Positions 12,374-61,031 are shown, numbered from the stretch's first letter. The stretch: 64,000 nt of DNA from Ignavibacteriota bacterium (GCA_963727825.1 CAVSHO010000009.1:128001-192000), one strand, 5' to 3'. Made by a program: numbers and translations. The notes: generated by a model from the letters alone, not told the origin.

Positions 12374-12517
12374 GTAGAGACGTTCAATTGAACGTCTCTA
12401 CAAAAGATTTGTTTGGCTTCGTTGGTTCACGGAGTTTAGGCAACAGTGTAGAGTCCAGTCACCGACTGGACTCTCTCTTTTGCCTTCATATTTTCCGATC
12501 TGGTGATCGGACTCTAC
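12374..12517. repeat. GTAG-type REP-like palindromes
   Basis: Perfect 28-bp palindrome GTAGAGACGTTCAATTGAACGTCTCTAC (12374-12401); inverted pair GTAGAGTCCAGTC..GACTGGACTCT (12448-12474) and TCCGATC..GATCGGACTCTAC (12494-12517), the latter overlapping the ampG stop codon. Confidence 0.8.
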
Positions 12518-13935
12518 CCCAATTTTTTCCTTCCGAATCCGGGATCGATTTTCACTAATGCAGCGACAATAAATCCCGGAATCGTCGATATCATTACCCA
12601 TAAAAAGAAATGCTGATAGCCGACGAGTTCTTGAATTTTCCCGCTCATCATTCCGGGCAACATCATTCCCAGCGCCATAATGCCGGTGCAAATAGCAAAG
12701 TGCGCTGTCTTATGTTCGCCCTGCGAGATATAAATCATATACATTGCATAAGCTGTGAATCCAAACCCATATCCAAACTGCTCCAGTGCCACTGCGATAT
12801 TGATGAACAATAAATTAGTCGGCTGGAAATGCGAAAGATATACGAACATTAAATCCGGCGTGTGCATAATGATCACCATCGGCCAAAGCCACCATCGAAG
12901 GCCTTTCTTTGAAATTGCATATCCGCCGAGTAATCCACCGGCAGTTAGTGCAATTATGCCGACTGTACCGTATACAATTCCGACTTCACTTGTTGCCAAT
13001 CCAAGTCCGCCTTTATCACGCGGATCGAGTAAAAATGGCGAAACGAGTTTTACTAATTGTGCTTCTGCAAAACGATAGAAGAGCAAGAATAAAAGGATTA
13101 CTAAAATATCTTTACGTTTGAAGAATATAACGAAGGTGTGAATGAATTCTTTGTTTATGTTATTCAACTTTGACCCTGAGTTAAAAAACGATCTCCCCTT
13201 CCGCCCAAAAGCCGGCGGATAAATTTTCCCCTCCTTAGTAAGGAGGGGATATGGGGTGGTAATATTTTTATCATTATCAAGAACAGTGTCGGCAAGAAAT
13301 GAATTTGAAATCTGTAAGGTTGATTTATCTGATGTGGGATATGGAAGAATAAATCGATGATACAAACAAAGCACTGCGAACATAACAGCAATCACTAAAA
13401 AGGTAATCGACCACGCCTGTGGAATCCCAATGCGCGACTCTAACGTTCCTGCCAATACAACTAATGCACCTTGTCCTGCAATCATCGCGATGCGATAAAA
13501 TGTACTGCGAATACCGACAAATGCTGCTTGCTGCGGCTCGTTCAAACCTAACATATAAAATCCATCAGCGGCAATATCATGCGTGGCAGAGCTGAATGCC
13601 ATCAACGCAAAGATAGAAAGTGTCAGAACAAGGAATGAAGGCATCGAAATAGTGAACGCAACGCCGACGAGTGCAATGGAAATCAGCAACTGTGTCGAGA
13701 CGACCCAGAACCGTTTTGTTAAAAACATATCAACGAATGGGCTCCACAACGGTTTAATCGCCCAAGGTAAATAAAGCCAGCTTGTGTAAAGTGCGATATC
13801 AGTGTTTGAGATACCAAGTTTCTTATACATTATCACAGATACCGTCATCACTACGACGTATGGAATTCCTTCAGCAAAGTAAAGCGACGGAACCCAAGCC
13901 CAAGGATTTCGATGTGTTGGTTTTGTTATGTTCAT
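12514..13935 (-). CDS. ampG: AmpG-family muropeptide MFS permease
   Basis: PWAWVPSLYFAEGIP, LPWAIKPLWSPFVD, SATHDIAADGFY and a multi-TM pattern; carries a repeat-derived central-loop insertion. Confidence 0.85.
   Translation of the reverse strand: MNITKPTHRNPWAWVPSLYFAEGIPYVVVMTVSVIMYKKLGISNTDIALYTSWLYLPWAIKPLWSPFVDMFLTKRFWVVSTQLLISIALVGVAFTISMPSFLVLTLSIFALMAFSSATHDIAADGFYMLGLNEPQQAAFVGIRSTFYRIAMIAGQGALVVLAGTLESRIGIPQAWSITFLVIAVMFAVLCLYHRFILPYPTSDKSTLQISNSFLADTVLDNDKNITTPYPLLTKEGKIYPPAFGRKGRSFFNSGSKLNNINKEFIHTFVIFFKRKDILVILLFLLFYRFAEAQLVKLVSPFLLDPRDKGGLGLATSEVGIVYGTVGIIALTAGGLLGGYAISKKGLRWWLWPMVIIMHTPDLMFVYLSHFQPTNLLFINIAVALEQFGYGFGFTAYAMYMIYISQGEHKTAHFAICTGIMALGMMLPGMMSGKIQELVGYQHFFLWVMISTIPGFIVAALVKIDPGFGRKKLG
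13193..13260. repeat. Composite palindromic repeat read in frame within ampG
   Basis: TCCCCTCCTT-AGT-AAGGAGGGGA (13227-13249) plus TCCGCC-CAAAAGCC-GGCGGA (13200-13219); a related CCCCACC..CCTCCCC..GGGGAGG repeat lies at about 14004-14033. Confidence 0.75.
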
Positions 13936-25719: not shown

Positions 25720-25877
25720 TCGATAGCAATATTCAATTAAATCATCGCAGAAACGTTCCCCACCAAACAAACGGTGGGTAAAAATTGAACGTTTTAACAT
25801 TGTTCAATAAAGGATAAATGCCTTCAATAGCCACATTCACTGTCATTCTAAATTAATTATAGAAACGAGGAATCTCA

Positions 25878-32180: not shown

Positions 32181-32353
32181 AACCTTCCGAAGGGCTGGAA
32201 GCCTGATAATGTTGCCCCGCAATGCGGGGCATCTTTTCCATTTACTTCGGAAGGTTAACTTAAACCTACCCGCAGCAGGCGGGGATTCTACGGTAACCTT
32301 GTCAAGGTTTAACCTGCCTGCCGTCTTTCTGGCGGGAACCTTGACAAGGTTAC
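32181..32353. repeat. Cluster of REP-like palindromes with nested GC-hairpin inserts
   Basis: AACCTTCCGAAGG..CTTCGGAAGGTT; TGCCCCGC-AAT-GCGGGGCA; CCTA-CCCGC..GGCGGG; GTAACCTTGTCAAGGTT-TAA-[24-bp insert]-AACCTTGACAAGGTTAC. Confidence 0.85.
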
Positions 32354-32364
32354 ACGTTTTTGTT

Positions 32365-32801
32365 TTACTTTGCCAATGCTAATGTCTCCATTGTAAATGG
32401 AGATGTTTCATCGCAAAATGGTGGACAGATTTCCACTTTTCTCCATAATACTACCTGTTATCATATCTTTTCCCGCGCCATCAACTCCGACAAGCACAAC
32501 TGTGAATTTATCATTCTCTTGTGCCCAATACATTTTAATTTTCTCACATCCAGGTTGTGCAAGTATTTTATCAAATGCGCCACGGTCAAATGAAGCACCT
32601 TGAGTTTGGGGCGCTTGAGGATTCTTGCGGAAGTTACTGACAAGTTGTAATCCTTCGCATCCAAAGCTGATCTCGTGTTTTTCGGCTCCAATAAATGTTT
32701 TATCTTTTGAATCAGTTGCACTTACTTTCGTTCCGATAAAAAATGAAAGCGTACAAATAACGAGGGCAATTACCCCCCCCCCACAATAATAGTTTTTTCA
32801 T
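32365..32801 (-). CDS. Signal-peptide-bearing CPPxC small protein, paralog of 33547-33879 (two +1 frameshifts; absent from the ORF track)
   Basis: AAGGAG RBS; manual translation MKKLLLWGG/VIALVICTLSFFIGTKVSA..GAEKHEIS..SFDRGAFDKILAQPGC..VLVGVDGAGKDM..SIMEK/ICPPFCDETS..LAK*; shifts at G10 (32773-32782) and near 32431. Confidence 0.8.
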
Positions 32802-32845
32802 TTTGCTGCTCCTTTTGTATTGTTTGTTTTTGGTTGATTAAGATT

Positions 32846-32889
32846 ACCTTCCGAAGGTCTCGGCGGATCTGTATTGACCTTCGGAAGGT
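32846..32889. repeat. REP-like inverted pair
   Basis: ACCTTCCGAAGGTC ... GACCTTCGGAAGGT, same family as 32181. Confidence 0.75.
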
Positions 32890-32893
32890 CAAT

Positions 32894-33545
32894 TTATACC
32901 GGCATTAACCGTTTTGCATAAAAAAGCACGAAGGAAAAAATATACTGCATTACAATAAATACATCATTTAACGGCCAGATTGCTCTGAGCAGTTTTCGGT
33001 TTGATATCAACATTGGGGTAAATAATCCGAAAAAGAAGAATGTGACTACTGCATATAAAACTATTCCTGACAGAACCCAGAAACGAATATCTTTTTTCAA
33101 AACAATATTTGTCTCTTTTATAGATTCTCAGCAATATCCACCCTCCAAAACCGATTTGGATGAGTTGAGCAATTGGCTCAGTATAATTATCCCATCCAGT
33201 AAATGACTCAAAGGTAAATTTTCCGATTATCCAAATTAGCAAATAAACTGCAAATCCAGCCCAAATTAAAAATCCATTTCGCTTGCTTGTTCGCCATAAA
33301 TAAAAAATACATGAGAACAATAATAATTCAATCACTGCAAAACTTTGGCCCATTAAATAAGTATGAATTTTTTTATGAACCATAACATCTATTACTATAT
33401 CGACGATTAATGAGCAAATGATATACCATTCAAGAATCCTAAGAGGTAATGTTAGTTGTTTATATCTTCTTAACCCAATAAATCCTACGACACAAACAAA
33501 AACTTGAGCAGTATATATTGCCACATACACATAATCTAGAGACAT
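32894..33545 (-). CDS. Multi-pass (about 7 TM) membrane protein, frameshift near 33117
   Basis: Consecutive hydrophobic helices; joining the two ORFs gives about 216 aa including RFWVLSGIVLY; start abuts the upstream gene's stop. Confidence 0.75.
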
Positions 33546-33546
33546 A

Positions 33547-33879
33547 CTATGCCTTCAAGAGTTCACTTGTTTCATCGCAAATTGGTGGACAAAACGAACC
33601 TCTCTCCATAATACTTGCAGTCATATCTTTACCAGCTTTATCAACACCAACAAGAACTAAATTAGGTTTGCCATCCTCATCGCGTCCATGATAATATCGC
33701 AAACCTTTACAATCCGGATGGGCAAGAATTTTATCAATTGCTCCACGGTCAAATGAGCCGCCGTGAAGTTTGGGATGGATCGGGTTTTTCTTGTGGCGTT
33801 GTATGTGCTGCTTTGCCTCGTCCAAAGAAATCTCGTGTTTTTCCGCACCCGGAAATTTTGCATCTACTTTTGCAGCCAT
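33547..33879 (-). CDS. Small cytoplasmic protein with C-terminal CPPxC motif
   Basis: Strong AAGGAGG RBS; HEISLDEA, SFDRGAIDKIL..C.GLRYY, LVLVGVD and CPPIC. Confidence 0.85.
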   Translation of the reverse strand: MAAKVDAKFPGAEKHEISLDEAKQHIQRHKKNPIHPKLHGGSFDRGAIDKILAHPDCKGLRYYHGRDEDGKPNLVLVGVDKAGKDMTASIMERGSFCPPICDETSELLKA

Positions 33880-33913
33880 GACTAATCCTCCTTATATGAT
33901 TAATAATTCAAGA

Positions 33914-34077
33914 CTTCTGAAATATTCGGGATTGTCATTTCGAAGAATCCAGAACGACAACTTGTCCGCCATTGTTTTGGCGGAAGTCAATCGGGAGACT
34001 GAGAAATCTTAATAAAAAGAAAGATTTCTCTCCCGATTGACATCGGGATCGAAATGACAAACAATATTTTTCAGAGG
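33914..34077. repeat. MITE-like composite palindrome (GTCATTTCGA...TCGAAATGAC) with nested insert
   Basis: TTGTCATTTCGA (33932) pairs with TCGAAATGACAA (34060); inner GTCAATCGGGAGA..GAGAAATCTT pairs with AAGATTTCTCTCCCGATTGAC; insert CTTG-TCCGCC..GGCGGA at 33961-33984. Confidence 0.8.
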
Positions 34078-34264
34078 CCTCAATTTAATACTGTTGTTTA
34101 GTAAAGCACATAAAAGTATATGTAAACAAACTTTTACAAGTCGCTCATAACATTACCAAGAAGGAGATTTACTGTTTTAAAGACTGCCAACAAGTTAAGC
34201 AAAATTTGGAATTATGCAACGAAAAGATACAATACTTTACCAAGACAATGAGACTTCGAAGTGT

Positions 34265-34324
34265 ATCTCTCCGACCGCTTAAACTTGCCCGCCGAAGGAA
34301 CGCAGGCGGGGCGATCGGAGAGAT
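34265..34324. repeat. Hairpin with nested GC-hairpin insert
   Basis: ATCTCTCCGACCGC-TTAAA-[CTTGCCCGCCGAAGGAACGCAGGCGGG]-GCGATCGGAGAGAT. Confidence 0.8.
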
Positions 34325-34417
34325 CGCTGCACCCAGATATGTATCATTGTGAAACACAATCTAAATAAAGAGCTATCGAAAACTTGCATCCGATAAAAAC
34401 GTAATCCTTCGACAAAC

Positions 34418-34492
34418 CCTCAACGTGAGGCCTCAACGTGAGACCTCGGCGTGAGACCTCGGCGTGAGCTCGGTCGGACGCTCGGTCGAACG
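34418..34492 (+). repeat. Tandem 12-13-bp repeats
   Basis: CCTCAACGTGAG(G/A) x2, CCTCGGCGTGAG(A) x2 and CTCGGTCG(G/A)ACG x2. Confidence 0.8.
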
Positions 34493-34581
34493 TTCAATGT
34501 GACTTCAAGTAATTTTTTTAAGATAAGTTCTAAAAGAAAAGTGGTCTTACCATGGCAATTCATTTCAAAGGGAAAAAACCC

Positions 34582-34623
34582 TTGACACAAGTGTCAATAA
34601 GTCATAATATGCAAACGTTTGCA
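34582..34623 (+). promoter_or_regulatory. Sigma70-type promoter with LacI-family operator
   Basis: TTGACA-17 nt-TAATAT followed by the perfect palindrome TGCAAACGTTTGCA (34610-34623); a second inverted repeat TTGACAC-AA-GTGTCAA overlaps the -35. Confidence 0.7.
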
Positions 34624-34624
34624 A

Positions 34625-34714
34625 ATGAAGCATCCGACTATTATTGATATCGCCCATAAACTGAAGATTTCTCTTTCAAGTGCCCTCAATGATCATCCGA
34701 ATATGGACATATAA
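34625..34714 (+). pseudogene. LacI-family regulator N-terminal remnant
   Basis: MKHPTIIDIAHKLKISLSSALNDHPNM resembles the LacI HTH start (TIxDIA..L.IS.STVSRALN) with the TVSR segment deleted. Confidence 0.7.
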
Positions 34715-34820
34715 TATCTATAAATCTGTCCTGAACAAAAAAGCTTCTGATGCAAATCTTCTCTGGGTAGGATGCATGTCAACTATTGTCGGTATTATGA
34801 TTTCCTTAGTAACTGCGTAA
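34701..34820 (+). pseudogene. Internal fragment of a sodium:solute (galactose-type) symporter
   Basis: IWTYNIYKSVLNKKASDANLLWVGCMSTIVGIMISLVTA resembles the SSS segment WTYDIY..ASD..L..GR..TVVG. Confidence 0.55.
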
Positions 34821-34912
34821 TGAGAAAGAAGTTCCTTTATATTTTACGTGGAGGTTTTATGATTGTCTTCGGGGGTGGAATGTATTTGAAAATGAGAAAG
34901 CAGATAAGGTGA

Positions 34913-36094
34913 ATGTATATGAGTTTTATTCAGTCGGTTACAACTATATTTAGGGAAAAATTCAAAGAACAACCCTTATTATTTCGTTCACCCGGAAGAG
35001 TGAATCTTATTGGCGAGCACACGGATTACAATATGGGGTATGTCCTTCCGGCAGCAATCGATAAAGCAATTATTTTTGCAATTACTCCGCGAAGCGATCG
35101 ACAGTGCATTGTGTATGCAATGGACATGAACGATGAGCATGAATTTTCGTTAGATAATCTTCAATTCTCAAAAAAGGGATGGCCGAATTATTTAATGGGG
35201 GTGGTGGATCAGTTAGTCAAAGCGAAGTATAATATAAGAGGATTTAATTGTGTTTTTGGAGGAGACATTCCAATCGGTGCAGGGATGTCGTCCTCTGCAG
35301 CACTCGAAGCAGGTTTGGCTTTTGCGCTTAACTCTATGTTCGATTTACAGATCGATGCACTTTCACTTGTTAAGCTTGCTCAAAAGGCAGAGAATGAATT
35401 TGTCGGTGTTCGGTGCGGCATTATGGATCAATATATAAACATTTTTGGAACACGAGATAACGTCCTTCGTATTGATTGCCGCTCATTGGAATACAAATAC
35501 TATCCGTTTGCTTTCGGCAATATATCTCTCGTTCTCTTTGACACATGCGTCTCGCATTCATTGGCATCGTCAGAATATAACCGAAGAAGAGAAGAATGCG
35601 GCGAGGGAGTAGAAATAATAAAAAATATTTATCCAGATGTGTGCCATTTACGAGATGTATCTATTGAGATGCTGCAAAAATGCAAGAACAAGATGGATCC
35701 GGTAATATATCGAAGGTGTAAATATGTCGTAGAGGAAAACGGTCGAGTGCTTAGTGCGTGCATCGAACTAGAACAAGGAAACTTGAAAGCTTTTGGTGCC
35801 CTTATGAACAAAACACACGATGGATTGAGCCGCGACTATGAGGTAAGCTGCGCAGAACTTGATTATCTAGTAGAGTTGGTCAAGGACAATCCATACGTCT
35901 ACGGTGCGCGGATGATGGGTGGCGGGTTTGGAGGGTGCACGATCAATCTCATTGAACGTCAAGCGGTCGAAGAAGTCAACCAGCGGGTAGCAGAGAAATA
36001 TAAAAAAGAATTTCACATCGACTTAAAGACCTACATTACGTCCATCGATTCAGGAACACATATTATCACAGCGAACGAATATGCAGCAGACTAA
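34913..36094 (+). CDS. galK: Galactokinase
   Basis: PGRVNLIGEHTDYN, PIGAGMSSSAA, CGIMDQ and GARMMGGGFGG. Confidence 0.97.
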   Translation: MYMSFIQSVTTIFREKFKEQPLLFRSPGRVNLIGEHTDYNMGYVLPAAIDKAIIFAITPRSDRQCIVYAMDMNDEHEFSLDNLQFSKKGWPNYLMGVVDQLVKAKYNIRGFNCVFGGDIPIGAGMSSSAALEAGLAFALNSMFDLQIDALSLVKLAQKAENEFVGVRCGIMDQYINIFGTRDNVLRIDCRSLEYKYYPFAFGNISLVLFDTCVSHSLASSEYNRRREECGEGVEIIKNIYPDVCHLRDVSIEMLQKCKNKMDPVIYRRCKYVVEENGRVLSACIELEQGNLKAFGALMNKTHDGLSRDYEVSCAELDYLVELVKDNPYVYGARMMGGGFGGCTINLIERQAVEEVNQRVAEKYKKEFHIDLKTYITSIDSGTHIITANEYAAD

Positions 36095-37127
36095 ATTGTT
36101 ACGATTTCCTCATCGAAGAAAAAATATACTAACAGGAGAATGGATTCTTGTTTCTCCACAGAGAACTCAGCGACCTTGGCAAGGAGAGATCTCTACTACT
36201 CCGAATGTACAGAACCTTGAATATGAATCAGGATGTTATTTGTGCCCGGGGAATAAGCGCGCAAACGGCGAAATTAATCCTCAGTATACCGGAACCTATG
36301 TCTTTACAAATGATTTCTCTGCACTAATTCCGGATATTCCGGCCGAACGGATCCAGGAGAATGATTTGCTTGTCTCGAAAGCAGAACGAGGAATATGCCG
36401 GGTCGTTAATTATTCGCCGAAACATAACTTAACTCTTGCTGAAATGACCGAAAATGAAATTGAACAAGTTATTGCCACCTGGCAGGAAGAGTTCAGAATG
36501 TTAGGAGAGAAACCTTACATCAACCACGTGCAAATATTTGAGAATAAAGGATCGATTATGGGAAATAGCAATCCGCACCCTCATTGCCAGATATGGGCGC
36601 AGGAAGGCATTCCCATGGAAACTAAAAAAGAGTTGAAACAATTCAAGGCATATTCTTCCAGGAAGAAACGAGGATTACTAACGGATTACCTGAAACTAGA
36701 GTTGCGTTTAAAGGACCGTTTAGTTTTTGAGAATGCATCGTTCGTTGTTGTGGTTCCATACTGGGCAATATGGCCGTATGAAACTATGATCATTCCAAAA
36801 AGAAGAATCTCCAATATTCTTCAATTGAAACCCGATGAACGAAAAGGTTATGCTGGTGCGATAAAAGCTGTAACCGTTAAGTACGATAACTTGTTTAATA
36901 TCTCATTCCCATATTCTGCTGGTTTGCATCAGGCGCCAACTGATAATCGCCGGCATAGCGAATGGCATTTTCATATGCACTTTTATCCACCGCTTCTTCG
37001 ATCGGCACAGATTAAAAAGTTTATGGTCGGATATGAAATGCTCGCTGAGCCTCAACGAGATATCACACCCGAAGAAAGCGCAAGAACTCTCCGGGAGTTA
37101 TCCATAGTACACTTTAAAATAGTTTAG
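36081..37127 (+). CDS. galT: Galactose-1-phosphate uridylyltransferase
   Basis: RPWQG, CYLCPGN, FENKG..GNSNPHPHCQ and YPPLLRSA. Confidence 0.97.
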   Translation: MQQTKLLRFPHRRKNILTGEWILVSPQRTQRPWQGEISTTPNVQNLEYESGCYLCPGNKRANGEINPQYTGTYVFTNDFSALIPDIPAERIQENDLLVSKAERGICRVVNYSPKHNLTLAEMTENEIEQVIATWQEEFRMLGEKPYINHVQIFENKGSIMGNSNPHPHCQIWAQEGIPMETKKELKQFKAYSSRKKRGLLTDYLKLELRLKDRLVFENASFVVVVPYWAIWPYETMIIPKRRISNILQLKPDERKGYAGAIKAVTVKYDNLFNISFPYSAGLHQAPTDNRRHSEWHFHMHFYPPLLRSAQIKKFMVGYEMLAEPQRDITPEESARTLRELSIVHFKIV

Positions 37128-37219
37128 CGCTGCCAAATCCAAATATGCAATCTTCTCAATCATTTATCCATCACACTTACATCGAGTGAAGTCTGAATAG
37201 AGAGGAATATCCAACAACA

Positions 37220-38224
37220 ATGTATTCGCCCAATCTTGATAGATATAGTTCCATGAGATACAATCGGTGCGGTCATAGCGGAATCAAACTATCCGCAATT
37301 TCACTGGGGTTGTGGCATAACTTCGGAAGCGTTGACAGCTTCGCGAATGCAAGAGCAATGCTACACCGGGCTTTTGATTTGGGAATTACTCACTTTGATC
37401 TTGCGAATAATTATGGTCCGGCTCCCGGATCTGCCGAAGAGAATTTTGGGAAGATTTTGAAAAAGGATTTTTTAAAGTATCGCGATGAGTTGATAATTTC
37501 TTCTAAGGCCGGTTATCCCATGTGGCCGGGGCCATATGGGGACTGGGGTTCAAGAAAATATTTGATTGCGAGTTTAGATCAGAGTTTGAAAAGAATGGGA
37601 TTGGAGTATTTAGATATATTCTACCACCACCGCCCAGATCCGGAAACACCACTTGAAGAAACCATGCAGGCGCTTGATCAGATTGTCCGAAGTGGGAAGG
37701 CATTTTATATTGGAATTTCAAATTATCCTGCCGACCTGACATTACGAGCGTCAACAATATTAAAAGAGCTGGGAACGCCTTGTCTTATTCATCAAGCAAA
37801 ATACAATATGTTCAACCGTTGGATTGAAGAAGATCTTCTAACTGTTTTGAAGAAAGAAAGGATCGGATGTATCGCATTCTCTCCTTTAGCACAAGGCCTG
37901 CTCACTGATAGGTATTTGAATGGAATTCCATCGGATTCGCGCGCTGCAAAACCTCATGGCTTTTTAAAAGTGGAAGAAGTGACAGATGAGAAAAGAAATT
38001 TATCTCGGCAATTAAATAAACTTGCTCAACAGCGAAATCAAACCATGGCGCAAATGGCATTAGCATGGGTGCTACGTCACAAAGAAATGACATCAGTCTT
38101 GGTCGGTACCAGCCGCGTTGCTCAAATTGAAGATGCTGTAGGCGCGTTAGCGAATCCCCATTTTTCCTCTGAGGAATTGAATGCAATAGATTTGATTCTT
38201 GCAGGAAAGAAGGAAAAGATATGA
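37220..38224 (+). CDS. mgrA: Aldo/keto reductase (L-glyceraldehyde-3-phosphate reductase, YghZ/MgrA type)
   Basis: SLGLWHNFG, HFDLANNYGP and SSKAGY.MWPGPYGDWGSRKYL. Confidence 0.9.
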   Translation: MYSPNLDRYSSMRYNRCGHSGIKLSAISLGLWHNFGSVDSFANARAMLHRAFDLGITHFDLANNYGPAPGSAEENFGKILKKDFLKYRDELIISSKAGYPMWPGPYGDWGSRKYLIASLDQSLKRMGLEYLDIFYHHRPDPETPLEETMQALDQIVRSGKAFYIGISNYPADLTLRASTILKELGTPCLIHQAKYNMFNRWIEEDLLTVLKKERIGCIAFSPLAQGLLTDRYLNGIPSDSRAAKPHGFLKVEEVTDEKRNLSRQLNKLAQQRNQTMAQMALAWVLRHKEMTSVLVGTSRVAQIEDAVGALANPHFSSEELNAIDLILAGKKEKI

Positions 38225-38609
38225 CAAAAGAATTGGTCACTTGATAGTGATCTTACTTGGAGTGGCAATACTTTGCTCTCAATCCAGAAGTCAATCTGAT
38301 GCAAAGAGATTAGAACGGTTCAAACCACTTTCTTTTGAAAAGGCCGATGTTAAGGCGAGTTCAATTTCCCTCCATTAAAAGACAATCTTCGACTGTAAAT
38401 GGATTATGAATCTATTTGAAAAAGCTTTAATAATAGACAAAGGAAAGGACAGTTGAACCTCTAAATAAAAAACTCTACATTATAATAATATTAACAGGTG
38501 ATAATCTATAATAGCCTATACTAAACCTCACAAAATCATAACATAAAAGCTCTGATTTAGTTCTTTGACGAGTTAGTATAGAAGAAAAAAGTATTGATTT
38601 AGATTCGAT

Positions 38610-38661
38610 GCCCGGATGGCGAAATTGGCAGACCTGCCTGCCGGCAGGCAGGCGCGCTAGC
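38610..38661 (+). pseudogene. tRNA-Leu 5' fragment with 20-bp palindromic insert (copy 1)
   Basis: GCCCGGATGGCGAAATTGGCAGA[CCTGCCTGCCGGCAGGCAGG]CGCGCTAGC is identical to the first 32 nt of the tRNA apart from the insert. Confidence 0.9.
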
Positions 38662-38674
38662 AAGAAACGTAATT

Positions 38675-38926
38675 ATGAATTGGTTTGTCTATGCGATTCA
38701 AAGCATACAACGTAATTATATATATGTCGGATTAACTTCGGACTTAGAGAAAAGAATATCTCAACATAATAACGGTAAAGAACGAACAACGCGACCATAC
38801 AGACCATTTATATTAATACATCATGAAATGTTTGGGACTCGTTTAGAAGCAAGAAAAAGAGAAATCTATTTGAAATCTGGATGTGGAAAAGATTTTTTAA
38901 AAAATCTCTCTTCCTTAGCGAAGTGA
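38675..38926 (+). CDS. Small GIY-YIG nuclease (SLX1-like/UPF0213 size class), copy 1
   Basis: FVY..YVG motifs, conserved Arg in KRISQHN and Glu in REIYLKSG. Confidence 0.92.
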   Translation: MNWFVYAIQSIQRNYIYVGLTSDLEKRISQHNNGKERTTRPYRPFILIHHEMFGTRLEARKREIYLKSGCGKDFLKNLSSLAK

Positions 38927-38955
38927 AACCGATACCAATGTGGATATAGTAAATT

Positions 38956-39007
38956 GCCCGGATGGCGAAATTGGCAGACCTGCCTGCCGGCAGGCAGGCG
39001 CGCTAGC
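38956..39007 (+). pseudogene. tRNA-Leu 5' fragment with 20-bp palindromic insert (copy 2)
   Basis: Same sequence as copy 1. Confidence 0.9.
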
Positions 39008-39020
39008 AAGAAACGTAATT

Positions 39021-39272
39021 ATGAATTGGTTTGTCTATGCGATTCAAAGCATACAACGTAATTATATATATGTCGGATTAACTTCGGACTTAGAGAAGAG
39101 AATATCTCAACATAATAACGGTAAAGAACGAACAACGCGACCATACAGACCATTTATATTAATACATCATGAAATGTTTGGGACTCGTTTAGAAGCAAGA
39201 AAAAGAGAAATCTATTTGAAATCTGGATGTGGAAAAGATTTTTTAAAAAATCTCTCTTCCTTAGCGAAGTGA
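39021..39272 (+). CDS. Small GIY-YIG nuclease, copy 2 (identical protein)
   Basis: Same 83-aa sequence; the ORF-track extension to 38940 reads through the tRNA fragment and is spurious. Confidence 0.92.
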   Translation: MNWFVYAIQSIQRNYIYVGLTSDLEKRISQHNNGKERTTRPYRPFILIHHEMFGTRLEARKREIYLKSGCGKDFLKNLSSLAK

Positions 39273-39301
39273 AACCGATACCAATGTGGATATAGTAAAT
39301 T

Positions 39302-39385
39302 GCCCGGATGGCGAAATTGGCAGACGCGCTAGCTTCAGGAGCTAGTGATCGCAAGGTCATGGGGGTTCAAGTCCCCCTTCGGGCA
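39302..39385 (+). tRNA. tRNA-Leu (anticodon CAG), CCA not encoded
   Basis: Acceptor GCCCGGA/TTCGGGC, anticodon arm CTAGC-TTCAGGA-GCTAG, long variable arm, T-arm GGGGG-TTCAAGT-CCCCC. Confidence 0.97.
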
Positions 39386-39387
39386 CT

Positions 39388-59531: not shown

Positions 59532-61031
59532 CTACCTTCTGTGTAATAGCGCTACATTCTCAATATGGAATGTATGCGGAAACATATCTACTGGTTGAAG
59601 TTTGATCAACTGATATTTTTCAGCGCAGAGTAATTTCACATCGCGTGCCTGCGTTGCCGGATTGCAGCTGACATAGACAATGCGGTCCGGCGCCAATACA
59701 AGAATTTCTTCTACAACTTTGGGGTGCATGCCGTTGCGGGGCGGGTCGATGACGAGCACATCCGGTTTCGAGTGAGACGCCATCCAAGATGTATCTTTGG
59801 TTAGTTTGTCTTTTAAATCTCCAAGAAGGAAATGGCAATTCGTAATGTTGTTTGACTGGGCGTTCTTTTCTGCATCGCGGATGGCACTTTCTACAGATTC
59901 TATTCCAACTACTTCCTTCACCGTATCCGAAATAAATATAGCAATAGAACCCGTTCCGGAGTAAAGATCGAATACAACATCTGTCGATTTGAGTTCTCCG
60001 AATTCTTTCACCACACCGTATAGTTTTTCCGCTTGCGCTACGTTCGTTTGGAAGAATGAGCTTGCCGAGATAGAGAAATCATGATTGCCCAATCTCTCAT
60101 GAATCCATCCATTGCTGAGATAGACATTCTCTGTTTCCCCATACGCAATTTGTGCTTTCTTGTTATTAATTGTGTTCACAACTGTAGTCACTTGTTCAAT
60201 ACTCGCTTTTAATTCCGCTGCATATTGTTTCATTACATCCGGACGATTTTCGAATGTCACGAGATTTGCCATCACTTCTTTTGTCTTTTTGTCCCGTTGA
60301 ACGGGATTCCCAAAAGCAGAACTTTCGCGAATAACGAGGAAGCGGAGATAACCACTGTTGCGATCCGAATCATACACGTTAAGGTGATTCCGCCGGGCAA
60401 AGTCACGAGTAAAATTTAAAATCTGATTGGAAACAACAGACTGTAAATGACATTCATCAATATCTAAAACCTTATCATAGCGCTGCGGAACATGCAAGCC
60501 AAGAAAGATTGGAGACCCGCCTTCGGCGGGCAAGTTGAAAATGATTGACTCATCGTTGGGAGGGAGTTCTACTCCCGACCTTATGGGTAATGTTAACCAT
60601 TCTTTCTCGGCAAACGAATATTCCATTTTGCCGCGGTAGAAATAAATTTTATCCGCTCCAATAATAGGAAGAACATTGAGATTGGAAAATCCACCTATAC
60701 GTTCGAATGAATCAACCACCTGTTGCTGCTTAAATCGAAGCTGTGCTTGATAATCCACATGCTGCCACTTGCATCCTCCGCAAACACCAAAGTATTTACA
60801 TCGTGGATCTACTCGCAACGGCGATGGTCGTTCAATGCGAACAACTTTCGCCTCTGCAAAACTTTTCTTGATTTTCAAAAGCTTAGCAATTACTACATCG
60901 CCGGGAACAGCATTTTCAACAAAGACGACCAATCCTTCATGGCGAGCAACGGCTTTTCCTTCGAACGCAGCATCCGTGATCTCAAGTTGAAGTTCATCGC
61001 CACGATGTAACTCAATCATAGAATCCTTCAT
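59532..61031 (-). CDS. rlmD: 23S rRNA (uracil-C5)-methyltransferase RlmD/RumA
   Basis: TRAM domain, CKYFGVCGGC, SFFQTN, DLYSGTG, IDPPR, YVSCNP and VDMFPHTFHIE. Confidence 0.93.
   Translation of the reverse strand: MKDSMIELHRGDELQLEITDAAFEGKAVARHEGLVVFVENAVPGDVVIAKLLKIKKSFAEAKVVRIERPSPLRVDPRCKYFGVCGGCKWQHVDYQAQLRFKQQQVVDSFERIGGFSNLNVLPIIGADKIYFYRGKMEYSFAEKEWLTLPIRSGVELPPNDESIIFNLPAEGGSPIFLGLHVPQRYDKVLDIDECHLQSVVSNQILNFTRDFARRNHLNVYDSDRNSGYLRFLVIRESSAFGNPVQRDKKTKEVMANLVTFENRPDVMKQYAAELKASIEQVTTVVNTINNKKAQIAYGETENVYLSNGWIHERLGNHDFSISASSFFQTNVAQAEKLYGVVKEFGELKSTDVVFDLYSGTGSIAIFISDTVKEVVGIESVESAIRDAEKNAQSNNITNCHFLLGDLKDKLTKDTSWMASHSKPDVLVIDPPRNGMHPKVVEEILVLAPDRIVYVSCNPATQARDVKLLCAEKYQLIKLQPVDMFPHTFHIENVALLHRR

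Follow-up and report, generated by a model that had tools for sequence, protein, structure and literature searches.

How a hairpin of 20–27 nt comes to lie inside the loops of other hairpins is the question raised by a 64,000-nucleotide stretch of DNA from an Ignavibacteriota bacterium, referred to here as the window, and by the genome to which it belongs (G000). Taken as a whole, the observations are probably best explained if the copies form a family of non-autonomous mobile micro-elements, and in the following sections we present the copies and their hosts and weigh this reading against its alternatives.

Copies of the micro-element in the window

Direct reading of the window confirmed the positions that an earlier note on this DNA had given for seven copies and a degenerate eighth, and revealed a ninth that the note had overlooked (25759–25782, minus strand, arms CCCACC/GGTGGG). 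The motif proposed in that note has nine matches in the window, which represent only seven loci because two palindromic copies match both strands; 200 dinucleotide-preserving shuffles gave a mean of 0.03 and a maximum of one.

Several copies lie within repeats related to REP sequences. The 24-nt unit at 32313–32336 (plus strand), formed by the tag CCTG and the hairpin CCTGCC-loop-GGCGGG, is inserted in a REP doublet, with the loop TAA before it and the 3′ arm after it. Its host hairpin, GTAACCTTGTCAAGGTT-TAA-[insert]-AACCTTGACAAGGTTAC (32293–32353, plus), is a REP of the family flanking the RAYT-like gene G000:C10:250348-250686, which has the same palindromes on both sides, two of them also with inserts. 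An empty paralogue at G000:C10:250715-250748 shows 97% identity across the junction, and host and insert are predicted to fold as one extended hairpin (−23.5 kcal/mol, z −7.7). The 27-nt unit at 34284–34310 (plus; CTTG followed by CCCGCC-(11-nt loop)-GGCGGG), found by direct reading and motif match, occupies the host hairpin ATCTCTCCGACCGC-TTAAA-[insert]-GCGATCGGAGAGAT (34265–34324, plus; predicted fold −18.7 kcal/mol, z −4.0), which resembles the REPs flanking the RAYT-like gene G000:C9:119964-120299 and has an empty paralogue at G000:C10:194553-194581 and a filled one at C1:246925. The degenerate eighth copy, read directly as CCTACCCGCAGCAGGCGGG (32265–32283, plus), belongs to a 19-nt subfamily, CCTRCCCGCAGCAGGCGGG, with 20 genome matches at three or fewer substitutions.

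The 24-nt element CTTGTCCGCCATTGTTTTGGCGGA (33961–33984, plus), also found by direct reading and motif match, is nested within a longer, MITE-like repeat of about 170 nt (33909–34081, plus, ends approximate). This host is missing from the orthologous sites in G011, G005 and G006, where query positions 369–372 are joined to 543, and one contig of run X4 skips 33882–34081. The paralogue G000:C12:48469-48548, 96% identical over 80 nt, lacks exactly 24 nt, and the copy is unchanged in a contig of run X3.

Two copies are found in fragments of a tRNA gene. The 20-nt perfect palindrome CCTGCCTGCCGGCAGGCAGG (38633–38652, without assigned strand) lies in the D-loop of a tRNA-Leu 5′ fragment (38610–38661), and a second copy (38979–38998, likewise) in a second such fragment (38956–39007). 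The intact tRNA-Leu(CAG) at 39302–39386 (plus) provides the empty reference, reading GGCAGA|CGCGC without an insert, and both 5′ fragments have 20 extra bases exactly there, with a boundary ambiguity of 1 nt for the 38633 palindrome.

The remaining copies are on the minus strand; of the nine in the window, two are found within long ORFs. The 24-nt element TTTATCCGCCGGCTTTTGGGCGGA (13200–13223) adjoins the REP CCCCTCCTTAGTAAGGAGGGG (13228–13248), and both are read in frame within a 473-aa transporter-like ORF (12514–13935, minus) whose orthologues in G013, G011, G005, G002 and G006 have 28–40 nt where G000 has 166 nt. The 19-nt copy CTTGCCCGCCGAAGGCGGG (60516–60534) falls in a segment of a 499-aa ORF (59532–61031, minus) that is hypervariable across the genus; it is present in none of the eight orthologues aligned over that segment, which is too variable to yield a precise empty site. 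The overlooked copy, TTTACCCACCGTTTGTTTGGTGGG, is located at AAACGTTCAATT|GAACGTTT, and in the predicted fold its stem is stacked on that of the host.

Anatomy of the unit and precision of insertion

The unit is a single hairpin preceded by a 4-nt 5′ tag, YTTR (mostly CTTG, TTTA or CCTG), with a 6-bp G+C stem (YCCGCC/GGCGGR or CCTGCC/GGCAGG) and a T/G-rich loop that is usually 8 nt long, a tag-plus-hairpin arrangement shared by every strict copy. The fifth and last bases of the stem change together, as T...A or C...G. The arms are conserved, as the earlier note described, but the loops do not differ freely, an RTCTTTKT-like loop being common to most copies. Neither coding capacity nor a shared neighbouring gene was found for the element.

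Across the whole of G000 the motif has 48 matches at 43 loci, compared with 0–6 in ten shuffled controls and one in the reversed genome. In-silico excision gave a junction-spanning match to a precise ‘empty’ paralogue in the same genome at 24 of the 43 sites, whereas none of 430 pseudo-excisions at random positions gave one; one further match, the 25th, was set aside as a self-overlap artefact. The units are discrete insertions of approximately 20–27 nt, in keeping with the non-autonomous elements of about 20 bp proposed earlier. They are inserted exactly and without target duplication: in 26 filled/empty alignments the ends are exact, with a boundary ambiguity of 0–3 nt, and a duplication is required in none, so that this part of the earlier description stands. 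Orthologous loci confirm that the element is missing in sister species but gave no precise unit-sized empty allele, and no filled/empty polymorphism of the 20–27-nt unit was seen.

Host sequences and hairpin-loop targeting

Insertions have occurred in many unrelated sequences able to fold as hairpins. At least 15 distinct host contexts, including the tRNA D-loop, coding genes and the element’s own loop, are present in G000, and the hosts comprise REP palindromes flanking RAYT-like genes (several families), attC-like repeats, tRNA-fragment arms and loops, and a terminator-like hairpin. The three unrelated hosts singled out in the earlier note have the contexts described there, but belong to repeat families of their own (REPs) or are tRNA fragments. 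Tandem heptamer repeats are associated with the element at G000:C9:26049 and in Desulfobacterales flanks. The attC-like host repeats adjoin an integron integrase (TIGR02249, 447.9 bits, C11:29893-30834). Integron attC sites are 57–141 nt long and have R''-L''...L'-R' boxes ending in GTTRRRY; we rejected the element as an attC site or cassette, as it is 20–27 nt long, lacks these boxes and is merely located inside attC-like repeats near intI.

No fixed target tetranucleotide was found in the flanks. Among 120 CTTG-tagged copies the preceding base is G 65 times, A 32 times, T 20 times and C three times; T is at −2 in 62 and a purine at −1 in 97, which is a preference only, and no flank-base preference was found for TTTA-tagged copies. 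The insert follows the last loop A in the three host contexts of the earlier note, but the preceding base is not always A.

The preferred landing place is the 3′ part of host hairpin loops. In G000, 15 of the 43 insertions fall within loops whose closing stem has 5 bp or more, as against 415 of 5000 random positions (8%). At these 15 sites the unpaired bases 3′ of the insert number zero in six, one in five, two in two, three in one and four in one; on the 5′ side at least two bases are always unpaired and the 5′ junction is never used. Since the insert is in the 3′ part of the loop, its stem stacks on the host stem, leaving a 5′ bulge. In other genomes the insert is closer to the 3′ side in 16 cases and to the 5′ side in three, and loop targeting is a tendency rather than a rule, because outside G000 just 20 of 129 copies are in strong hairpin loops, against 282 of 3000 random positions (9.4%). 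The earlier view that the elements are structure-targeted therefore survives in part: placement relative to hairpins in G000 is non-random, with loop enrichment and a 3′ skew, but the exact 3′ junction is used at just six of the 15 loop sites and the effect is weaker elsewhere.

The element’s own loop is also a target, with a fixed entry point, and insertion directly behind another copy is found as well. We found 20 distinct self-nested cases, 13 of them after loop base 6 of 8, and all ten tandem pairs abut head-to-tail with 0 nt between; inverted doublets were not noted among these 20 nested and 10 head-to-tail arrangements.

Distribution across genomes and phyla

Occurrence is patchy in one bacterial class and extends to several other phyla with nearly one 24-base sequence. 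At least 119 stretches from named genomes contain the same 24-mer, YTTR-YCCGCC-RTCTTTNT-GGCGGR; they come from Desulfobacterales, Pirellulales and Ignavibacteriota as well as further phyla, whereas for a 41-bit pattern about 0.5 matches are expected by arithmetic over 1.2e12 positions. Every one of the 15 other genomes of the genus has a match, as do 21 of the 24 in the family (reversed-pattern control 0–2) and 34 of 121 genomes of the class, with 35 copies in G078 and none in most. Five distant genomes have 19–69 copies each (controls 0–2), and one Synechococcus-labelled MAG has 25.

Candidate enzymes

The earlier note had named two possible drivers, an unlinked RAYT/TnpA and the adjacent GIY-YIG nuclease, and had suggested that their gene counts be correlated with the abundance of the motif. 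A profile search gave 12 PF01797 matches in G000, and the best correlate of element count is one RAYT-like subfamily (for 41 genomes, which as kin are not independent, rho is 0.75; for the genus alone it is 0.51 and for the genomes beyond it 0.50, shared ancestry being ignored). This speaks for the RAYT side of the comparison, but the same subfamily was found in just two of the five distant element-rich genomes, and is never cognately flanked, which leaves a weak candidate. Free-standing copies flank the Y1 gene at none of the 12 G000 loci; each is flanked by other palindromes, and near seven of them the micro-element is present only as an insert within these. No copy lies within about 1.5 kb at 14 Y1 loci of the five distant genomes, barring three degenerate matches, and G112 (99% complete, seven copies) has no PF01797 match. 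A comparison of 80 loci from different phyla showed no protein family that is repeatedly found next to the element.

The GIY-YIG gene of the window encodes 83 aa (38675–38926, plus; PF01541, 63.6 bits) and is followed by a second, identical gene (39021–39272, plus; PF01541). They belong to a tandem pair of cassettes, each about 346 bp long and consisting of a tRNA fragment, the palindrome and a GIY-YIG gene, with the 38675 gene in the first. Within the genus GIY-YIG gene count shows no relation to element count (rho −0.05), as illustrated by G002, with 19 genes and four elements, and G014, with one gene and 19 elements; most copies are also distant from any such gene, and the proposal that this nuclease drives the element is supported on neither point.

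Proposed mechanism and alternative explanations

REPs and the ends of IS200/IS605 elements are also built from a tag and a hairpin. By this likeness, integration would take place on single-stranded or cruciform-extruded DNA, where the loop would be the target because it is the only unpaired part of the hairpin, and would be catalysed by a trans-acting enzyme recognising the tag plus hairpin of the element. A Y1 HUH enzyme (RAYT or IS200-type) may tentatively be put forward as the best analogy for this catalyst, and HUH chemistry as the basis of insertion is likewise suggested by analogy only. After insertion, the composite repeats of host and insert could be amplified further by the host repeat’s own system.

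The alternative that survives best, though we consider it rather unlikely, dispenses with a dedicated enzyme: a replicative or repair polymerase, stalled at hairpins, would switch templates and so copy the hairpin into their loops, with later amplification of the composite repeats. The hosts are indeed hairpins, the insert is close to the 3′ arm, a point at which a switch by a stalled nascent strand is conceivable, and no linked gene was found. Possible microhomology is seen at C14:32977, where the empty paralogue retains CTTT at the site, and at one target already with CTTG adjoining the insert, but microhomology priming is unneeded and often impossible, because empty sites, AATT|GAAC and ACA|TCTCCC among them, do not contain the full 4-nt tag. 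The exact ends of the unit, full tag included, also argue against template switching; the near-identical 24-mers across phyla and the fixed self-insertion point (13/20) resemble sequence-specific recognition, and a patchy distribution is odd for a universal process.

Less likely again is that the element is not mobile today, and that a few ancient insertions gave composite repeats multiplied by RAYTs, integron recombination and gene conversion, the hairpin being kept for a protein-binding or RNA-stabilising function. Filled copies in one host family often have a common tag type and position (three TTTA at AATT|GAAC, four at ACA|TCTCCC), copies 2 and 3 are unchanged in contigs of related strains, and the element sequence is kept across the order, all of which would fit. 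The number of host contexts in G000 alone, the patchiness within the class, the absence from orthologous sites in sister species and the unrelated flanks of the same 24-mer in other phyla do not.

An RNA route, in which a transcript of the hairpin enters nicked or single-stranded loops by reverse transcription or reverse splicing, seems improbable. It would account for the many hosts that are transcribed 3′ structures (REPs, terminators, tRNA-like arms), for a location in the 3′ half of loops that recalls tRNA-loop intron positions, and for a unit too small for two transposon ends; against it, no matching Rfam family was found for the element and no reverse transcriptase or intron beside the copies, and the insertions lie in both orientations relative to neighbouring genes and in attC-like sites, which act as DNA. 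Finally, that the neighbouring small GIY-YIG nucleases cut hairpin or tRNA loops, into which the hairpin is copied during repair, is very improbable: 10 of the 12 small GIY-YIG genes of G000 adjoin a tRNA gene or tRNA fragments, and in most of those fragments a small G+C hairpin occupies a D-, anticodon- or T-loop (among them the pair in the window and, at C13:67460, another member of the family), but these tRNA-scar hairpins are from several unrelated sequence families at other loop positions, most of the 43 loci are remote from such genes, the gene counts do not follow the element, and repair-mediated homing requires a flanking homology that the unrelated hosts lack.

Comparison with known elements

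The closest known relatives of the micro-element are the small dispersed repeats (SDRs) of cyanobacteria, here compared by description, and REPs inserted in palindromes. SDR1–8 of Nostoc/Anabaena, reportedly described by Elhai et al. in 2008 (Genome Res 18:1484, cited in PMC3116915), are said to be hairpins of 21–27 nt with compensatory changes, no coding capacity, precise insertion, self-nesting and tandem heptamer repeats. By that description, the micro-element is alike in size, hairpin fold, absence of coding capacity, precise insertion, self-nesting and heptamer association. To our knowledge, SDRs have been described only in cyanobacteria, whereas the micro-element is found, with its sequence almost unchanged, in a class of Bacteroidota-labelled genomes as well as in Desulfobacterota, Planctomycetota and other groups, and its preference for the 3′ part of foreign loops (REP, attC-like, tRNA arms) is quantified here. 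Precise insertion inside HIP1 is described for SDR5 (PMC4390886).

For REPs, the superfamilies described by Di Nocera et al. (2013, PMC3733652) have unpaired GTAG or CGTC tags, and the same paper describes REP units within palindromes (A. variabilis GTAG-15, T. roseum GTAG-23, H. neapolitanus CGTC-1). REPs as described there are similar in having a 4-nt unpaired tag before a short G+C hairpin (20–40 nt), dozens of copies and some intragenic members, but the YTTR tag is neither of those two. The micro-element differs further in that a cognate RAYT gene flanked by it was not found (12 G000 and 14 distant loci), in its nested or head-to-tail copies, where inverted pairs are common in REPs (BIME/REPIN), and in the abundance of empty target palindromes from many families.

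IS200/IS605 elements require single-stranded DNA, cause no target duplication, leave seamless empty sites and have a hairpin with an adjacent guide-like sequence. Their single-strand ‘peel and paste’ transposition is exemplified by IS608 and ISDra2 (see also 10.1101/279083). The micro-element shares the absence of duplication, the seamless empty sites and the hairpin with a short adjacent sequence, but has a single hairpin where those elements have separate left and right ends, and no conserved target tetra- or pentanucleotide; no transposase was found within or beside it. An orientation bias relative to replication is a further mark of such elements; relative to local GC skew the micro-element copies divide 19 vs 11 (n=30), which is not significant.

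Rickettsia palindromic elements, mentioned with intragenic REPs in PMC3733652, are likewise palindromic repeats tolerated in frame within protein-coding genes. They are about 100–150 nt long and confined to Rickettsia, whereas the micro-elements in ORFs measure 19–24 nt and the family is mostly intergenic. The G+C clusters and double-hairpin elements of fungal mitochondria are short hairpins rich in G+C, which spread through DNA of higher A+T content and also enter other hairpins. By description they share hairpin-into-hairpin insertion, but are organellar, longer and of other sequence families. At 20–27 nt, the micro-element would be among the smallest DNA elements known that appear mobile.

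Copies in the window and in the genome

The micro-element is an insert of 20-27 nt made up of a 4-nt tag (YTTR), a 6-bp G+C stem and a loop. It was described in an earlier note by the motif A|YYTR-YCYGCC-N(3-11)-GGCRGR, and direct reading of the window finds every copy listed there at its coordinates: CCTGCCTGCCGTCTTTCTGGCGGG at 32313-32336, CTTGTCCGCCATTGTTTTGGCGGA at 33961-33984, CTTGCCCGCCGAAGGAACGCAGGCGGG at 34284-34310, the perfect palindrome CCTGCCTGCCGGCAGGCAGG at both 38633-38652 and 38979-38998, minus-strand copies at 13200-13223 and 60516-60534, and a degenerate copy at 32265-32283. A ninth copy lies on the minus strand at 25759-25782, with arms CCCACC/GGTGGG just beyond the motif; finding it was the only use made of generic G+C-hairpin searches with any 4-nt prefix, in which the family is lost among about 900 unrelated hairpins. 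The motif occurs at 7 window loci, against a mean of 0.03 and a maximum of 1 in 200 dinucleotide-preserving shuffles. The genome-wide scan that the note had called for bears this out, with 43 loci in the 3.12-Mb genome (G000, contigs C1 to C14), far above ten shuffles (0-6) and the reversed genome (1).

Two other features were seen close to these copies. About ten C's in a run at 32766-32776 break a minus-strand ORF (about 32397-32800) similar to the 110-aa ORF at 33547-33879, and for the run a frameshift is one possible reading, a phase-variable tract another. The segment 34400-34480 holds a short tandem array, its unit 13 nt long (GGCGTGAGACCTC-like), with related GC-rich repeats behind it.

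Anatomy of the micro-element

The tag occurs as CTTG, TTTA, CCTG or TTTG, and the 6-bp stem shows covariation at its outermost pair (T...A or C...G). The loops had been thought to differ freely between copies and instead mostly read RTCTTTKT. There are two subfamilies, a 20-nt palindrome that lacks a loop (9 matches, with up to 3 substitutions) and a 19-nt form, CCTRCCCGCAGCAGGCGGG (20 matches). When a filled site is folded as single-stranded DNA it gives one long hairpin, in which the insert stem is stacked on the host stem and a 5' bulge is built from the host loop and the tag; the fold of 32290-32356 has a free energy of -23.5 kcal/mol (z = -7.7). In an Rfam search the micro-element matched no family.

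Evidence for discrete insertion

The element was removed in silico at the 43 loci and the joined 40+40-nt flanks were searched against the genome, an empty paralogue being a match elsewhere that crosses the junction by at least 9 nt. Such paralogues were found for 24 of the 43 loci (25 before removal of C11:397152, which overlapped its own locus), compared with none of 430 random 24-nt pseudo-excisions, and the proposal of discrete insertion is upheld. Filled and empty sites can be paired with exact ends: GTAGAGGCGTTCAATT-(24 nt)-GAACGCCTCTAC has its empty form in three copies of GTAGAGACGTTCAATTGAACGTCTCTAC, and 15 empty copies correspond to GGGAGAACA-(24 nt)-TCTCCC. For the window copy at 33961 the empty counterpart is C12:48469-48548, which matches it at 96% identity over 80 nt and is shorter by exactly 24 nt, and the insertion at C9:281015 has five empty copies that are 98.6% identical. 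The single intact tRNA-Leu(CAG) of the window (39302-39386, by ARAGORN and Rfam) reads ...GGCAGA|CGCGCTAGC..., and two 5' fragments upstream of it carry 20 extra bases at exactly the GGCAGA|CGCGCTAGC point. As the note had held, no target duplication is required in any of the pairwise alignments, the boundary ambiguity being 0-3 nt. Two cases are odd: the 'empty' paralogue C14:32977 retains CTTT at the site, and the target C11:430762 already has CTTG immediately behind the insert. At C12:12694 an element lies in the loop of a second element, itself in the loop of a host hairpin.

A k-mer search of the whole genome for repeats that differ by indels of 12-45 nt yielded 354 groups, for the most part tandem duplications or chance matches, and was left out of all counts; the 13-nt array at 34400-34480 also surfaced in it as an indel.

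Hosts of the insertions

The palindromes among the hosts are repeats that flank Y1/RAYT-like genes (Y1, PF01797, being the HUH transposase family that includes RAYT-like and IS200-like genes). The 12 PF01797 (Y1_Tnp) matches of the genome include a single IS200-like gene (C7:128228-128578) and a pseudogene, and the others fall into several RAYT-like families, which score 99.2, 79.5 and 59.1 bits against NCBIfam REP_Tyr_transpos (cut-off 80); RAYT-like genes lie at C7:141833-142417, C6:12421-12930, C7:111489-111824 and C10:250348-250686, among other places. Host palindromes of this kind are GTAACCTTGTCAAGGTTAC around C10:250348-250686, CTCCGACGCACC... around C9:119964-120299, GGGAGAACATCTCCCTCACAACTT around C7:141971, C8:57993 and C9:377932, and ACCTTCCGAAGGT around C7:111489. 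Further hosts are a terminator-like hairpin upstream of two RAYT-like genes, the loops of tRNA fragments, tandem heptamer arrays (C9:26049), two long ORFs in the window, and repeats ending in GGTTAGG(C/G), called attC-like by their sequence ends, which extend over C11:121-26136 and neighbour an integron integrase (C11:29893-30834; TIGR02249, 447.9 bits, cut-off 265). In all, G000 alone offers at least 15 distinct host contexts.

Several of these hosts are of interest in their own right. Outside the window, C11:1-30834 forms a chromosomal integron in which about 27 kb of GGTTAGG(C/G)-ending repeats adjoin the integrase; similar repeats occur at C11:80-100 kb and C12:73-76 kb, where no integrase was detected. 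REP palindromes are found in frame inside long ORFs, a likeness to the Rickettsia palindromic elements, and two such palindromes bear the micro-element, one in a transporter-like ORF (12514-13935, minus strand) and one in a 499-aa methyltransferase-like ORF (59532-61031, minus strand); a RAYT-like gene at C7:244533-245054 is split by the GTAGAGACGTTCAATTGAACGTCTCTAC palindrome. The window also has a MITE-like repeat of about 170 nt at 33909-34081, with outer inverted repeats GTCATTTCGA...TCGAAATGAC and a paralogue at C12:48423-48556. Long heptamer tandem arrays (AATCCNC-like) lie at C9:1-200 and C9:24900-26100, one of them carrying a copy of the 20-nt palindrome, and in one sister species similar arrays make up the segment of the methyltransferase-like gene that varies.

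Two other repeat families came to light. A longer repeat with at least seven near-identical copies (C1:256440, C1:394292, C11:58595, C7:89254, C9:36566, C9:311219 and C9:928969) has in each copy CCTGCCCGACGCAGGCGGG between ...GATCTGGTGATCG and GACTCTACAAGCTAAT..., and may be an insertion sequence end carrying a relative of the micro-element. A 30-nt hairpin insert (CCAGAGGCG-GAT-GCGCCTCTGG-like), also with filled and empty paralogues, is found at C1:239472-239501, C8:45129-45160 and C12:53184-53230, which suggests that several micro-element families coexist in G000.

Small GIY-YIG genes (80-100 aa) form a recurrent arrangement with tRNA genes: 10 of 12 adjoin a tRNA gene and have partial copies of this tRNA on their flanks, as at window 38610-39386, where the unit is a 346-bp tandem duplicate, and at C7:93996-95000, C10:74914-75500, C8:159600-160000, C12:39900-40400, C13:67400-67820 and C1:4160-4560. 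In most of the partial copies the D-, anticodon-, variable- or T-loop is broken by a small G+C hairpin, and these hairpins belong to several unrelated sequence families. The unit looks like a tRNA-targeting homing cassette with a hairpin-carrying scar.

Target rule

The note placed the insert at the 3' loop/stem junction of host hairpins. With the insert removed and 30+30 nt of flank folded with DNA parameters (a loop being closed by at least 5 bp), the junction fell in a hairpin loop at 15 of 43 sites in G000, compared with 415 of 5000 random positions; two further sites are off by one base only, where the program closes a T-A pair within a TTAAA loop. Among the 15, the insert was followed on its 3' side by no unpaired base in six, by 1 in five, by 2 in two, and by 3 and 4 in one each, where uniform placement would give 2.7 cases per junction; on its 5' side at least 2 bases were always unpaired. 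Enrichment is weaker than in G000 among 129 distinct contexts from other genomes (20 of 129 in loops, against 282 of 3000 random positions), which show a 3' skew of 16 to 3 with one tie. Self-nested cases lie after loop base 6 of 8 (...GTTCTT|element|GT GGCGG...) in 13 of 20 and after base 1 in 3 of 20, and tandem pairs abut with no spacer in 10 of 10, these cases not all being independent as composite units may be copied whole. These loop-position counts thus describe a real tendency to insert 0-2 nt from the 3' arm and not an exact rule, many copies lying outside strong hairpins. No fixed target word was found in the flanks: of 120 CTTG-tagged copies, 62 have T at -2 and 97 have a purine at -1, and TTTA-tagged copies show no base preference.

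Orthologous sites and related strains

Alignment of orthologous loci, which the note had suggested as a way to find empty sites, shows lineage-specific gain. It gives no precise empty allele of 24 nt, since each species is represented in the collection by a single genome. The repeat of about 170 nt that hosts the 33961 copy is missing at the orthologous site in three related genomes (G011, G005 and G006), and where the transporter-like ORF has a 166-nt segment of REP plus element, five sister species have 28-40 nt. The 60516 copy, in a hypervariable segment of the 499-aa ORF, is present in none of the 8 orthologues aligned there, the segment being too variable to define a precise empty site. 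In contigs of four metagenome runs (low depth, 12-28% of sampled words), skips of 114-211 nt remove host repeats and the copies at 33961-33984 and 34284-34310 are covered unchanged; no skip of a 20-27-nt unit alone was seen in these contigs, which cannot show rare alleles.

Distribution

The narrower pattern YTTRYCCGCC-N6-10-GGCGGR was used for counts in the genus, family and class. Every one of the 15 other genomes of the genus carries it (1-24 copies), as do 21 of the 24 in the family and 30 of 41 relatives including G000, with 0-2 matches for the reversed-pattern control. An even sample of the class is patchy, with matches in 34 of 121 genomes, many of them a single match at control level; the copy-rich genomes are G078 (35), G000 (16), G005 (11), G104 (8), G157 (8) and G112 (7). 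G041 and G045 are likewise rich in copies.

A stricter 41-bit pattern, YTTRYCCGCCRTCTTTNTGGCGGR, gives at least 119 stretches in the species-genome collection, where about 0.5 would be expected by chance over 1.2e12 positions at equal base frequencies. Among the matches listed, record titles include Ignavibacteriota, Ignavibacteriales, Melioribacter, Bacteroidota, Desulfobacterales, Desulfobacteraceae, Desulfatiglandales, Pirellulales, Sedimentisphaerales, Zixibacteria, Chitinophagaceae, Pseudomonadota and one Synechococcus-labelled MAG, and two of the matches listed are in complete MAG chromosomes. Five genomes from these matches have 69, 19, 33, 25 and 64 copies (controls 0-2); the flanks of the copies are unrelated, and two- and three-deep nesting, tandem arrays and heptamer-repeat contexts are common. 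The pattern is borne by 2 of 2.9 million viral contigs, and a search of the plasmid collection found no match to a filled site.

The search for a driver

No gene linked to the micro-element was found in the genomes and loci examined. A RAYT-like or other Y1 transposase is the best analogy, with a low probability of being the enzyme itself. In G000, 7 of about 13 Y1 genes have a copy within about 300 nt, always inside the flanking palindrome of that gene, which target preference explains equally well. Element count across 41 related genomes correlates (Spearman) with PF01797 at 0.48 and with two RAYT-like subfamilies at 0.38 and 0.75, and within the genus at 0.32, 0.39 and 0.51, respectively; all such gene-count correlations are only weak hints because kin are not independent. 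Against this candidate, the best-correlated subfamily was found in 2 of 5 distant copy-rich genomes, none of the 14 Y1 loci examined in those five genomes has the micro-element beside it, and G112 (99% complete, 7 copies) has no PF01797 match at E <= 0.001. PF01797 is matched in all five distant genomes, weakly in two (E 5.9e-5 and 5.9e-6). A copy pair flanking an IS200-like gene in G014 was considered as cognate ends and rejected, both copies lying inside that gene's own flanking palindromes. Across phyla, no recurrent neighbour protein appeared in 80 loci beyond orthologous genes of related MAGs, and orientation relative to local GC skew was 19 to 11, not significant. The small GIY-YIG nuclease, also suggested in the note, is not supported as a general driver: its correlation with element count is 0.42 across the 41 genomes and -0.05 within the genus.

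Comparison with known systems

Small dispersed repeats (SDRs) of Nostoc are reportedly 21-27 nt long with a shared fold, and are said to be self-nested and embedded in heptamer arrays. They are the closest description, and the micro-element behaves like an SDR, SDR1-8 having been compared by description only. One SDR family is precisely inserted within HIP1 (PMC4390886), the SDR description of Elhai et al. 2008 is cited in PMC3116915, and Di Nocera et al. 2013 (PMC3733652) describe tagged REPs, with three families inside palindromes, and class the cyanobacterial repeats as 'untagged', in families whose relation is unknown. The cognate RAYT and inverted doublets that define REP/RAYT systems are both absent from the micro-element family, as are the two ends and the fixed target word of IS200/IS605; a strand bias, a third IS200/IS605 feature, has so far not reached significance. 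The micro-element is therefore filed as neither. A literature search found, within the library searched, no account of this sequence family or of loop-directed micro-insertion beyond the papers cited here. The micro-element is of a kind that is already known, if little understood, and shows cross-phylum reach and a measurable target rule.

Proposed mechanism and significance

That the micro-element is mobile, duplication-free and hairpin-seeking is well supported, unlike the exact junction rule and the drivers that the note proposed. Given the lack of any linked gene, its movement would be mobilised in trans and depend on single strands. The ability to fold is the only property common to REPs, attC-like sites, tRNA arms and the element's own hairpin, and once a hairpin is folded or extruded its loop is the sole unpaired DNA. 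Where single strands are cut and joined, as in IS200/IS605 and REP/RAYT, the hallmark is exact ends with no duplication, and by analogy the ends of the micro-element would fit such chemistry. We tentatively propose, as a possibility that we rate somewhat below even, that the YTTR-CCGCC hairpin is a pan-bacterial 24-nt mobile element, the smallest class with a defined sequence, which targets structure and not sequence, entering single-stranded hairpin loops in their 3' part, be they loops of REPs, of integron attC sites, of tRNA arms or of the element itself, is moved by an enzyme or host-universal process so far unconnected with transposition, and crosses phyla as a passenger in transferred DNA.

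Elements this small have no room to encode anything or to hold two transposon ends, and the way in which they are excised, copied and inserted has been a standing question since the cyanobacterial SDRs were described. Cross-phylum reach and a measurable target rule make that question approachable by experiment: a defined 24-mer with exact ends, abundant filled and empty sites in one genome, the structural target rule and a range of 0 to 69 copies across related genomes mean that the enzyme can be sought directly, by oligonucleotide biochemistry and by phylogenetic profiling. For annotation, micro-elements account for odd 'extra' hairpins in tRNA pseudogenes and repeats. The inserts alter the shape of hairpins that have functions, among them REPs, integron attC sites, terminators and tRNA-like arms. 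They are also tolerated in frame inside genes, and so recombination, transcript stability and protein loops may be affected.
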